A stretch of 64,000 bases of DNA, taken from NCBI GenBank assembly GCA_048940925.1, contig JBHLOC010000007.1, positions 1-64,000 on the forward strand, written 5' to 3'. A program made the translations under genes and the position numbers. Of the stretch, positions 9,026 through 12,872 are shown one piece after another. Source of the stretch: Promethearchaeota archaeon. Lineage in GTDB: Archaea; Asgardarchaeota; Lokiarchaeia; Sigyniarchaeales; SOKP01. Each line of letters opens with the position of its first letter. Within the stretch, counting starts at the first letter, position 1. Under the pieces are notes generated by a model. The model did not search any database. It saw only the letters and a program-made list of their open reading frames with translations, and was not told the origin of the DNA.

Positions 9026-9364
9026 TTAGAAGAAATTTCTTGTCTCAAATCTGTATGCTGCTCTTGTTAGTCCTACATAATTATCTGAGATTTTATAAAA
9101 CATTTTACCATTTACTATTTTTTTCTGTAAGTAATTATTTTTAATAGTATGGTTAAGAGCTCCTATCATAGTACCTAAAGTAACTGCTCCTATAAACTCA
9201 TGCTGTTTTTTTGTTATTCTTATTAATTCCAGCTCAGAATGCCAATGACCATCGAGTAAAGCTATTAGAATTTCATTTTTTATTGGGGTTTTTATATCCT
9301 TAATTTTATTAAATAAAATTGAATAACCAGGTTTATAATATTTATGTTCCTCAATTCCTTCCAT
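9026..9364 (-). CDS. Small protein, possible winged-helix fold
   Basis: Helical 'ILIALLDG..HSELEL' followed by a beta-wing-like 'KKIVNGKMFYKIS'. Confidence 0.5.
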   Translation of the reverse strand: MEGIEEHKYYKPGYSILFNKIKDIKTPIKNEILIALLDGHWHSELELIRITKKQHEFIGAVTLGTMIGALNHTIKNNYLQKKIVNGKMFYKISDNYVGLTRAAYRFETRNFF

Positions 9365-9477: not shown

Positions 9478-10599
9478 TTATATCAAATCAGGAGGAATAC
9501 CTTCTTTAAAATATCTAGCTCGAGTTATCCAATTCTCTGAGAATTCAGGAATCATTGCCAGAATAGAACCTCCAATCCATACTGAAAATGTTCTTTCTTG
9601 GGGAGCAATAATTCTAATAACCTGATCTGTTTTTTTCCTCCTAGCCAACTCTAACTCTAATTCTTGATACATACGAGCTTTTAGATTAGGGAACATTGAA
9701 GATCCTCCAGATAAAAATATATTGTTTAATAATTCGGGACGAATATCTAAATCACACCCTCCTATAACGTCCATTATAGCGACTGGTAATGAAATTTCCT
9801 CTAATTCTGAAGAAGGGTTAAATAAGAGCTCTGGCACTAAAAATCTTTCTTTATTCAACGATATAGTAGATCCATCAGGTAAAGAATATTCCTTTTCATA
9901 TTGTTCACTTCTTCTTAAGTCTTCTTTATAATCTAAGGATACAAAACAAGATTTTTCCTTCAATACTCGAACTAGTTCTCGTCTTATAGATGAATCTACA
10001 GACCATCCAATAGATTCTAATGTTTGTTCCATATATCGAGTTAAAACTCTCCCTCCAATGTCCAAAATTTTTACCGCATGGTCTATCTTATATCCTTCAT
10101 AGATTGGCACTATTCTGGTGTTACTATCACCAATTTCAATAATTAAACCTGTTTGAAAACCTCCTGAATAAAGGGTTAACATGGAATCAAGTACAGGATA
10201 AAAGGCCATGCACTGATAATGTTCCAAGAAAAGTTCAAAAACTCTTTTTAAATCTTTATATGGGAATAAGGGGTGGATTGCAAATAATACATTTACTAAT
10301 GTTGGATCTACTCTCAGTTTATAAAAAATGTAATCAATAATATTTTCAAAACGCGCCCAATCAACAATGATTCCTTTCTCAATAGGATGAGAAATCTTAT
10401 ATAAGCCAATTGACTGAATTTCATCACCTACATAGATCTCATTTTCTCGAGATTCATTTGTTATATAATCAATACCCACACTTTGATATTTTGGTTGCCC
10501 AACCATTGTCAAAAACACTTGACTAGGTGAATCTTCTCCAGCGAAACCTATCTTTGAACTAAACTGACCTATATCTAAAACAACAGTAAGATTTCCCAT
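9478..10599 (-). CDS. Actin-family protein (divergent Asgard actin/Arp-like)
   Basis: VLDIG..KIGFAGEDSP, YVGDE, PIEKGII.DW, GDSNT..VPIYEGY, DIGGR.LT.Y, KEKSCFV, YSLPDG, LSGGSSMFP, SVWIGGSILA; collinear with eukaryotic actin. Confidence 0.97.
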   Translation of the reverse strand: MGNLTVVLDIGQFSSKIGFAGEDSPSQVFLTMVGQPKYQSVGIDYITNESRENEIYVGDEIQSIGLYKISHPIEKGIIVDWARFENIIDYIFYKLRVDPTLVNVLFAIHPLFPYKDLKRVFELFLEHYQCMAFYPVLDSMLTLYSGGFQTGLIIEIGDSNTRIVPIYEGYKIDHAVKILDIGGRVLTRYMEQTLESIGWSVDSSIRRELVRVLKEKSCFVSLDYKEDLRRSEQYEKEYSLPDGSTISLNKERFLVPELLFNPSSELEEISLPVAIMDVIGGCDLDIRPELLNNIFLSGGSSMFPNLKARMYQELELELARRKKTDQVIRIIAPQERTFSVWIGGSILAMIPEFSENWITRARYFKEGIPPDLI

Positions 10600-10691: not shown

Positions 10692-11438
10692 TTATACTAA
10701 TAAAATTTTTAGAGGAGTATATGTAGTTTCAGGCATGAACGCTTCACCAAATTCGCTATTAATCTCATTCCCCCTTAAAATTGCAGTATCTTTTGCCCAA
10801 TCTAAAACACGTTCTAAAACTTCTTCTTGAGAAATGTATATGTGTTTAAAAATCTCTTTTTTACGTTCCCAAGTATCAGTAATATCTACAATTACAAATA
10901 CAGATCCTTCAATATATTGAAATTTACATGATGGGGATTCATAATAATAAACTCCATATGGTTTCCATTCTCTTCCATGACCTCCGTAAGCTTTCCCAGT
11001 AGAACAATGATAAATCGCTTCTCTTACTATAAGTGATAAATTTCGATGCACTCTATGAAAATCTGTATAATGAGGTAATAAAATAACCTGAGGTTGGTAC
11101 TCTCTTATTAAATTTGTAATTTCTGAGACTTTATTTCGTTCTACCTTTAAGTCTGGATACTTTAATTCTATAATTTCACATTTCAATATCTCTCTTGCAA
11201 AATCTAATTCTTTTCCTCTCTGAAATGAGATTTTTTCTTTATCTTGTTGTTTAGCATACCCCCCTAATCCCTTAGTAGCTATAATTATAACAATTTCAGA
11301 TCCTAGATTTTGATATTTTAAAATAGTTCCTCCACAAGAAATTAATTCGTCATCAGGATGCCCTGCAAACACTATTATTCTTTTTGGTATTACTACAGGA
11401 AGCTCGTCTTCACATTTAAAAAATGATTTTTCTGACAT
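10692..11438 (-). CDS. PIG-L/LmbE family N-acetyl-sugar deacetylase
   Basis: 'GHPDDE' metal motif, 'T.G..G', 'DFHRVH', C-terminal 'GEAF'. Confidence 0.9.
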   Translation of the reverse strand: MSEKSFFKCEDELPVVIPKRIIVFAGHPDDELISCGGTILKYQNLGSEIVIIIATKGLGGYAKQQDKEKISFQRGKELDFAREILKCEIIELKYPDLKVERNKVSEITNLIREYQPQVILLPHYTDFHRVHRNLSLIVREAIYHCSTGKAYGGHGREWKPYGVYYYESPSCKFQYIEGSVFVIVDITDTWERKKEIFKHIYISQEEVLERVLDWAKDTAILRGNEINSEFGEAFMPETTYTPLKILLV

Positions 11439-11638: not shown

Positions 11639-12325
11639 CTATTCTCCTCTCATAATCTTTTTCAATCTATTTAGTTCATCGAGCATTTCATCTCTAAGAG
11701 AGCTTAAACCTCCTCCCGCAGCAGGTGCGGCTGGAGTTGCTGCTGTTACTGGAGGTCTTGGTGGTCCGCCACTAGGAGCTACAGCAGGTGCTGCTGTTGG
11801 AGCGGTGGGTCTTTTTACAAATGTAGGTGCTTTTGGAGGGGCTCCACCAGGTGGTGCTTTAGGAGGACCACCGCCTGAAGGAGGTAGTTTAGGAGCGGGG
11901 GGTAAATTGCCACGTTTAGGGGGACCTCCACCAGGTGGCGCTTTAGGCGGACCTCCACCAGGTGGTGCTTTAGGCGGACCTCCGCCGCTTGGAGGAGCAG
12001 GAGCTGCGGTCAAACTTGGGGGTGGTGAAGCTGCTGTTGGTACCCCAGGTGGACCTCCTCCGCTTAATAATGAAAATAAGGTACTAGCTGCAGCTGTTTT
12101 GGCAGTATCAGGAGTCGCTGCTGGTGCTATTTTTTTAGAGGAAGTACTTACTGTTTGAACTTCTTCTACAGTAACTTCTTTTAAATCCTTCTGAGCTTTA
12201 GCTAAAGACTTGATAAAATCATTAATTCCTTTTACAGTCTCTTCAAGATCATCAGCTAATGAAGTTAAACCTTTTTTCATAAAATTAACTACGCGTTCGA
12301 TTTTTTTTTGCTCTTTTGAAACCAC
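11639..12325 (-). CDS. Proline-rich protein: N-terminal coiled coil, polyproline repeats, C-terminal amphipathic helix with LKK
   Basis: GTG start; repeats GGGPPKAPP; tail GGGLSSLRDEMLDELNRLKKIMRGE. Confidence 0.85.
   Translation of the reverse strand: MVSKEQKKIERVVNFMKKGLTSLADDLEETVKGINDFIKSLAKAQKDLKEVTVEEVQTVSTSSKKIAPAATPDTAKTAAASTLFSLLSGGGPPGVPTAASPPPSLTAAPAPPSGGGPPKAPPGGGPPKAPPGGGPPKRGNLPPAPKLPPSGGGPPKAPPGGAPPKAPTFVKRPTAPTAAPAVAPSGGPPRPPVTAATPAAPAAGGGLSSLRDEMLDELNRLKKIMRGE
11841..11986. repeat. Intragenic 27-bp imperfect tandem repeat encoding (PKAPPGGGP)n
   Basis: ggacctccaccaggtgg(c/t)gctttaggc at 11922 and 11949, partial copies near 11976 and 11841. Confidence 0.9.
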
Positions 12326-12605
12326 GTCTTTCTCAATTCCTCTAATATTATTGTAAGTTTAATAAATAGTTATTATTACTAGTAATAATCTAATAATTTA
12401 ATTATATAATAAATTAATATGTATTTATATTTTTATTCCATACTTGAATGATCTTTTAATCTGAAATAATCCCTATTTATGAAAAAACGTTAATTATTAA
12501 AAAACCTAAACTAATAATATTATATAACATATTTCATTAGTAATTTTTAAAATTCAATTTTTTAAAATACTACATATTTGAATAAATAAAAAAGATGGTA
12601 GAAAA

Positions 12606-12872
12606 ATGCCAAAGCGTGAACTCTTCATAAAGAGAGTGTATGAGATTGTAAATGAGCTTAAAATTCCCTTAATTGATGAGAGGGTATATGACAATGTTAA
12701 GTTCAGTGCAGGATCGGCGATTGCATCCGTCATTTTCAAATTTGAAGAGGATGAATCTGTTATCCGCGGGTTCCTCGGTCTTGCAGAATATTTCCACACT
12801 GTTGTGATCAAGCGTAAAGATGAATTCTTTATACCCCATGCCTCTATATTATTTCGTCTGATTAGCGCTTAA
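12606..12872 (+). CDS. Hypothetical small protein (88 aa)
   Basis: Clean ATG-TAA ORF with protein-like composition, followed by an oligo-T tract. Confidence 0.75.
   Translation: MPKRELFIKRVYEIVNELKIPLIDERVYDNVKFSAGSAIASVIFKFEEDESVIRGFLGLAEYFHTVVIKRKDEFFIPHASILFRLISA

Follow-up and report, generated by a model that had tools for sequence, protein, structure and literature searches.

What does a short archaeal protein with a long N-terminal helix, a proline-rich tract and a conserved C-terminal helix do, and does it act on actin? The question is raised by a gene in a 64,000-nt stretch of DNA (the window: positions 1 to 64,000 of contig JBHLOC010000007.1, assembly GCA_048940925.1, from a Promethearchaeota archaeon of the Lokiarchaeia), which a preliminary description took to encode a minimal archaeal actin regulator with WASP/VASP-like architecture. 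We refer to this gene and its product as the tether gene and the tether protein, after the role proposed below. The tether protein represents a real, strongly conserved and hitherto undescribed family of Asgard-archaeal proteins. No account of the family turned up in the literature searched, and the protein has no match in Pfam, NCBIfam or the sequences of the Protein Data Bank (PDB), and no usable match in the protein atlas; the family escapes annotation because it consists mostly of low-complexity sequence.

Three-Part Architecture of the Tether Protein

The translation and an AlphaFold2 (AF2) model, built on a 37-sequence alignment, both agree with the N-terminal helix, Pro/Gly/Ala region and C-terminal sequence claimed for this protein in the preliminary description (Table 1). 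In the model, residues 4–50 form a confident helix (pLDDT ~95), residues 72–87 a weak one (pLDDT ~55), residues 88–206 are disordered, and residues 207–225 form a second confident helix (pLDDT ~90), hereafter the tail. The low pTM of the model (0.24) indicates that there is no globular fold, and two confident helices divided by about 120 disordered residues fit the architecture of a tether. The first helix has hydrophobic residues at 86% of heptad a/d positions in its best register, as would be consistent with a coiled coil. The tail helix has a hydrophobic moment of 0.45, a single hydrophobic stripe and a mean hydrophobicity of -0.24; since conserved polar positions flank the stripe, specific recognition of a protein by the tail is suggested. 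The tether protein ends three residues past this helix, contains neither Trp nor an acidic run there, and has a longest proline run of three. At the nucleotide level, the Pro/Gly/Ala tract lifts the local GC content to 57–63% in a genome of ~28% GC, and an AGAGGA box is situated ~10 nt upstream of the GTG start codon; a scan for bacterial-type promoters and terminators gave background level only.

Distribution, Conservation, and Two Anchor Types

At least 245 homologues of 200–250 aa were identified, all annotated as hypothetical and all from Lokiarchaeia-type metagenome bins; together with the conservation of the tail, this argues that the tether gene is not a chance open reading frame (ORF). 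In the alignments the tail is nearly invariant, the N-terminal helix is conserved, and the motifs L-F-x-L-L-x-G, LPPAPKLPP and F-A-K-R-P stand out, while the number of spacer repeats and the length of the spacer differ among relatives. The tail is the best-conserved segment of the family (3.74 bits per column), far above what is expected of low-complexity sequence.

The tail was also used to take a census of 400 Asgard genomes, using a profile of the tail plus a short lead-in with a cut-off of E ≤ 1e-4. Families are numbered f1 to f31 here; f1 is the family of the window itself, f3 is its sister family, and f1–f7 constitute the window's class. The profile matches 297 of the 400 genomes, normally with one copy each; the tail, whose conservation the preliminary description had proposed to check, is near-invariant and nearly phylum-wide. 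Several families below the cut-off still carry the tail when their ORFs are inspected. No tail was found in f23–f25 in this census, nor in f24, f25, f8, f10, or f30 even at permissive thresholds. The 19–20 residues of the tail helix conform, across the phylum, to S-[IL]-x-x-L-[RKQ]-x-E-M-[LM]-x-E-[LMI]-x-R-[LI]-[KR]-x-[ILF]-[MFI]; its hydrophobic positions are kept across lineages, as are five polar ones (R, E, E, R, and K).

The segment that precedes the spacer exists in two types. A soluble form with an N-terminal heptad helix is found in f1–f7, f19, f20, f21, f26, and f27; variants of the L-F-x-L-L-x-G motif are present in every soluble-type lineage read. A membrane form, with an N-terminal transmembrane segment and a helical domain followed by a spacer and tail of the same type, is found in f9, f11–f16, f18, f28, and f31 (several transmembrane segments in the f16 members). 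Many membrane-type members belong to Heimdallarchaeota bins, including two closed Ca. Heimdallarchaeum genomes. Basic residues directly follow the transmembrane segment, and on this reading of the sequence the spacer and tail of the membrane form would be cytoplasmic. The helical domain behind the transmembrane segment shows a recurring pattern that ends in G-x-I-[ST]-x-x-x-[FY] (loci L126–L128, L156, L160, and L170) and recalls SHOCT domains; Pfam gives no significant match (E = 0.19).

The spacers also differ in their proline runs, which were counted in 121 Loki-class, 49 Heimdall-type, 12 f3–f7, and 21 f31 members. Runs of 5–7 prolines occur in 23 of the 49 Heimdall-type members; outside these, runs of at least five prolines were seen in one Odin-like member only, and in none of the Loki-class, f3–f7, or f31 members. 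Even a four-proline run is reached by only one of the 121 Loki-class relatives.

An 88-Residue Protein Accompanies the Soluble Form

In the window the tether gene is arranged head-to-head with a gene for an 88-aa protein, across 280 nt. The two genes are adjacent in seven families and in three orientations: divergent in f1, co-directional in f5, and convergent in f7, f19, f21, f26, and f27; in f3 and f4 they are unlinked. The 88-aa gene is present in all soluble-form families, and among the membrane-form families it is present only in genus g76 of f31. It is the 88-aa gene, and not the actin paralogue described below, that is the steadier and deeper genomic partner of the tether gene. Because the tail is widespread without the 88-aa gene, we infer that the 88-aa protein works with the soluble anchor and not with the tail.

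The 88-aa protein is highly conserved, and its model is a confident alpha/beta structure (pLDDT 88.7). It has no Pfam hit, and no convincing relative of its fold was identified by Foldseek against the PDB (best E = 0.26) or in the wide VIA search (best Z = 4.4); in the atlas, TM-scores of about 0.65 were obtained to parts of unrelated large proteins only. Searched against 1.84 billion proteins, a profile of the protein recovered just 27 representatives, all of them short. The 88-aa gene is intact in the window; in some genomes of the same genus (L041 and L057) it carries an insertion of ~30 nt with an in-frame stop after codon 8, which appears in the genome search as '1 TAG' or '1 TGA' within the match.

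A Proposed Tether-and-Dock Mechanism

The gene inventories and models above suggest a modular tether composed of an anchor, a disordered spacer and a docking tail. In the window's protein the helix with heptad repeats, which probably oligomerises as a coiled coil, would be the anchor; its place would be taken by the N-terminal transmembrane helix and accompanying helical domain in Heimdall-type lineages and several other Asgard groups. The Pro-rich disordered spacer, free to drift in length and repeat number, would carry the C-terminal amphipathic helix, which would serve as a docking peptide that catches one conserved cytoplasmic partner. This partner would then be held where the anchor sits: at the membrane in the case of the anchored form or, for the soluble form, in a complex that includes the adjacent 88-aa protein. 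Taken as a whole, we consider the chances of this tether-and-dock mechanism to be evenly balanced. Direct observation covers the architecture and how well it is conserved, together with both kinds of anchor and the shared distribution of the 88-aa gene; the docking of a partner by the helix, and the identity of that partner, are inferred.

The membrane form resembles tethers of the ZipA/TonB type in having an anchor, an extended Pro-rich spacer and a terminal element that grips a partner. It differs from these in that their terminal module is a folded domain, whereas that of the tether protein is a 20-residue helix, and there is no sequence relationship.

Actin as the Candidate Partner

The most likely partner of the tail would be the hydrophobic groove of Lokiactin or of an actin paralogue, bound in the manner of the arcadin-2 or WH2 helix; we put this forward tentatively. 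The archaeal precedent is arcadin-2, whose last 17 residues bind the hydrophobic groove of crenactin (PMC5173319). By analogy, the mode proposed for the tether protein is that of arcadin-2 of Pyrobaculum (PDB 5LY3; PMC5173319), in which a conserved C-terminal helix is the sole actin-groove binder. The two differ in other respects: a PDB-wide search detected no resemblance of the tether tail to arcadin-2 in sequence, and arcadin-2 itself has none of the Pro-rich spacer, coiled coil, or membrane anchor of the tether family. In addition, the arcadin-2 gene adjoins the crenactin gene, whereas the tether gene adjoins an actin paralogue within f1 alone.

The preliminary description had pointed to a co-oriented actin gene about 1 kb away with one gene in between, and this is correct: a divergent actin paralogue is situated 1039 nt downstream of the tether gene on the same strand, with a deacetylase gene between them. 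The window's genome encodes five actin-family genes, of which two are Lokiactin-like (441 and 430 bits). Gene order around the tether gene was compared in 27 loci from seven genera of f1, and in all 27 a phosphoribosyltransferase gene is followed by the small gene, the tether gene, an optional deacetylase, the actin paralogue, and the 112-aa gene; flanking genes for a transporter and for TrkA-like and SIS proteins are also conserved. The deacetylase is missing from about half of the f1 loci, in which the tether gene abuts the actin paralogue, and its presence in some relatives and absence from others suggests that it is probably a passenger. At one locus (L071) only about a third of the deacetylase gene is left, as a match of 71 residues.

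Thus, within f1 the tether gene is linked to the actin paralogue in seven of seven sampled genera, and the expected synteny with actin stood in this family; outside f1 it did not. There is no actin gene within 8 kb of the tether gene in f3, and the adjacency was not seen in the loci of f3–f7, f19, f26/27, f31, or the Heimdall-type lineages. The f3 orthologue of the actin paralogue is 50% identical; in one closed f3 genome the tether gene, the 88-aa gene and the actin paralogue are all within 45 kb, and in another the paralogue is 10 kb from the 88-aa gene and 270 kb from the tether gene. Beyond the order to which the window belongs, no orthologue of the actin paralogue was evident.

Two further patterns bear on actin. 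Lokiactin is 96–99% identical within f1 and 70–79% identical across the phylum, a near-invariance that parallels that of the tail, and in the tail-less families f23–f25 the best actins are only 51–54% identical to Lokiactin. The contrast in proline runs, with long runs in Heimdall-type members and none in Loki-class members, fits the reported pattern of poly-Pro binding by Asgard profilins: a Heimdall profilin binds a VASP poly-Pro peptide, whereas Loki-1, Loki-2, and Odin profilins do not (PMC8410842).

Several observations weigh against actin as the partner. The whole f1 region is syntenic, so adjacency to the actin paralogue carries little weight; gaps of 200–430 nt and T-runs after the stop codon suggest separate transcription units. 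Outside f1 the tether gene has housekeeping neighbours, which in f3 encode adenylosuccinate synthetase and a methylase, and in the Heimdall-type and f31 lineages RpiA, a secretion-type ATPase, a tRNA-splicing endonuclease, and PGK. PhoU is also among the housekeeping neighbours of distant members, and the conserved neighbours of these members suggest no function. Two families, f8 and f10, hold a Lokiactin of 67–69% identity yet have no detectable tail, and the absence of the tail from f23–f25 is confounded by general divergence and may only reflect fast evolution. The correlation with proline runs is loose, because a Thor profilin is reported to bind the peptide as well (PMC8410842) and the taxonomy of f31 is not established. 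No WH2 or other actin-binding signature is detectable in the tether protein by comparison with Pfam and PDB sequences. Finally, the accessible portion of a preprint on co-immunoprecipitation with Lokiactin of L. ossiferum names profilin, gelsolins, and an Arf GTPase, and no tether-like protein (bioRxiv 10.1101/2025.11.30.690169).

On the circumstantial points in its favour, actin is the leading candidate for the partner of the tail. The wider proposal is of a phylum-wide tether with a tail that captures actin or, in Heimdall-type lineages, profilin-actin, and keeps it either at the membrane or in an oligomeric complex with the 88-aa protein; it is more doubtful than the tail's binding to an actin groove.

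With regard to the neighbours listed above, the membrane-form gene of Heimdall-type and f31 loci (L131–L149 and L151) is part of a conserved block with genes for RpiA, a T2SSE-like ATPase, and the tRNA-splicing endonuclease; a tRNA-splicing endonuclease gene is also near the tether gene in two families of the window's class (L063 and L064).

Table 1. Features of the tether locus, with positions in the window.
Feature	Position	Strand	Description	Basis
Tether protein gene	11639..12325	-	228 aa; GTG start; single copy in genome; at least 245 homologues	
N-terminal long helix	12176..12316	-	residues 4–50; probable coiled-coil anchor or oligomerisation element	AF2, heptad pattern
Second short conserved hydrophobic motif	12062..12112	-	L-F-x-L-L-x-G; residues 72–88; invariant columns in the alignments; weakly helical	alignment, AF2
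Disordered Pro/Gly/Ala spacer	11717..12061	-	residues 89–203	sequence, alignment, AF2
LPPAPKLPP motif	11879-11905	-	in spacer; invariant in Loki class	alignment
F-x-K-R-P motif	11807-11824	-	in spacer	alignment
27-nt tandem repeat	11915..11983	-	x2.6; 95% identical; encodes 9-aa unit GGGPPKAPP	
C-terminal docking helix (putative)	11642..11716	-	residues 204–228; family signature	alignment, profiles
Divergent intergenic region	12326..12605	.	280 nt; AT-rich; between tether and 88-aa genes; presumed promoters	
Orphan alpha/beta protein gene	12606..12872	+	88 aa; divergently transcribed; steady partner of soluble form	
PIG-L/BshB1-like deacetylase gene	10692..11438	-	between tether and actin genes	
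Divergent actin paralogue gene (ARP-like)	9478..10599	-	Pfam Actin 291 bits; 43% identical to the genome's Lokiactin	
112-aa protein gene	9026..9364	-	after actin paralogue in every f1 locus; labelled winged helix-turn-helix; no Pfam hit	

Other Readings of the Tail

The strongest of the alternatives, which we nevertheless regard as unlikely, is that the tail is a MIM1-like helix (MIM, MIT-interacting motif) that docks on the MIT domain of Vps4 or of another protein, so that the tether protein would be an adaptor linked to the endosomal sorting complex required for transport (ESCRT), comparable to the linker and MIM of ESCRT-III/IST1 proteins. Like the MIM helices of ESCRT-III/IST1, the tail is a terminal helix that follows a flexible Pro-rich linker; it matches four of the six positions of the MIM1 consensus, and the L-P-x-x-P-x-L-P-P sequence of Loki-class spacers loosely recalls MIM2. 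In the window's genome the ESCRT-III protein encoded beside Vps4 ends in a helix that shares ELNRLK with the tail. When a profile of the tail helix was run over 30,053 ORF segments of the same genome, however, this local resemblance was not significant: the ESCRT-III C-terminal end scored 6.6 bits (E = 10; rank 11). No ESCRT chain was recovered from the PDB, no Snf7 core (PF03357) is present in the tether protein, and ESCRT genes are not among the conserved neighbours of its gene; both Snf7 proteins of the genome are encoded elsewhere. The phyletic patterns also differ, in that Snf7 is present in seven of seven f24 genomes, a family that has no tail. The Vps4 gene (MIT and AAA domains) is on contig C54 (locus L161), divergent from the ESCRT-III gene whose C-terminal helix contains ELNRLK.

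Two helices among the segments that scored above the ESCRT-III end in the same scan are leads only. The second-best match to the tail profile (16.8 bits, E = 0.007) is an internal helix of a Sec23/24-like protein of 552 aa with a zinc ribbon, a trunk/vWA domain, and a beta-sandwich (contig C62, L078:1309-2964, - strand). The other (13.8 bits, E = 0.06) resembles the tail, begins with L-R-D-E-M-L, and belongs to a zinc-ribbon protein of 156 aa that falls in no known family (contig C41, L079:1348-1815, + strand).

The preliminary description favoured a minimal actin assembly factor of WASP/VASP type, in which the coiled coil would oligomerise the protein, the proline tract would recruit profilin-actin, and a WH2/EVH2-like tail would deliver monomers to barbed ends; we now consider this improbable. 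The start of the tail, L-x-[DE]-E-M, presumably recalls the VASP F-actin-binding helix and the WASP C helix. The order of the elements resembles that of such factors, the tether gene is linked to the actin paralogue in f1, and genuine oligo-proline runs occur in Heimdall-type members; in addition, the GGGPPKAPP unit is similar to GAGGGPPPAPPLPAAQ, the VASP peptide of the profilin assays (PMC8410842). Of the actin-regulator interpretation, the three-part architecture and the conservation of the tail stood, and the identity with WH2 or VASP did not. No Pfam hit was obtained for the whole tether protein (E ≤ 1), the tail alone (E ≤ 10), or nine diverse members (E ≤ 1), with no WH2, EVH1, or VASP_tetra match at any threshold tried; the tail profile, compared with all PDB chain sequences (E ≤ 10), recovered no chain of WH2, VASP, WASP, arcadin, crenactin-complex, or ESCRT proteins.

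The comparison with WH2 (PF02205, which includes the LKKT-type motif of Asgard gelsolins; PMC9433394) depends on a short amphipathic helix followed by L-K-K-[aliphatic], which the window's protein does possess. In the family, however, the basic pair is not conserved: depending on lineage, this element reads LKK, LKS, IKE, LKT, LKA, LRA, or LRE, with I, L, F, or Y as the next residue. The motif is also inside one continuous predicted helix, the spacing from helix to LKK is three residues shorter than in WH2, and there is no match to the hidden Markov model. The tether protein shares with Ena/VASP a Gly/Pro-rich tract, a short amphipathic helix and, probably, an oligomerising helix, but in reversed order, with the putative coiled coil, its only long helix, at the N-terminus. 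Further differences are that more than two or three prolines in a row are almost never seen in Loki-class members and runs of five or more not at all, that Loki profilins are reported to have no poly-Pro binding (PMC8410842), and that a membrane anchor replaces the coiled coil in most Asgard lineages. The tether protein is likewise distinct from the VCA region of WASP/WAVE, since it has no acidic C-terminal segment with a conserved Trp.

A third alternative dispenses with a separate partner: the tail could be a second self-association helix, or an amphipathic helix that binds in the plane of the membrane. The amphipathic character of the helix noted above fits this reading, which the preliminary description had raised as a caveat of its own, but it seems to us to have little chance of being correct. 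A Glu is conserved at a position that would be in the core of a self-association helix; two acidic and three basic positions conserved throughout the phylum, together with the negative mean hydrophobicity, are atypical of lipid-binding helices; and the membrane-anchored forms need no second membrane binder.

The weakest alternative, that the receptor of the tail is the adjacent 88-aa protein and that both together make up a closed two-component module with no relation to the cytoskeleton, appeals to an adjacency kept in seven families and three orientations, to the high conservation of both tail and 88-aa protein, and to the confident but unmatched fold of this stand-alone orphan, and is very improbable because the tail occurs in nine membrane-type families with no detectable 88-aa homologue, the small protein tracks the soluble coiled-coil anchor and more likely binds the N-terminal part, and the genes are unlinked in f3 and f4.

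Implications for Asgard Cell Biology

The census of the tail, the membrane-anchored architecture, the match between the 88-aa gene and the soluble form, the contrast in proline runs, and the negative MIM test are new here. The tether family has the traits of a linker between cytoskeleton and membrane: it is near phylum-wide and single-copy, its conservation peaks at the tail, and it exists in membrane and soluble versions. It bears on two questions about protrusion-forming Asgard cells, namely how their Lokiactin filaments come to be nucleated and by what means these are attached to the membrane. Profilins and gelsolins are the only Asgard actin regulators named in published work, as a December 2025 preprint states explicitly. 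If the tail does capture actin, the tether family would constitute a third class of regulator beside profilin and gelsolin, and, in functional terms, an analogue or forerunner of polymerases that act close to the membrane in eukaryotes, such as Ena/VASP and the FH1 modules of formins. Should the partner prove to be something other than actin, the presence of one docking peptide across Asgard classes would still signify a conserved interaction that has hitherto gone unrecognised.

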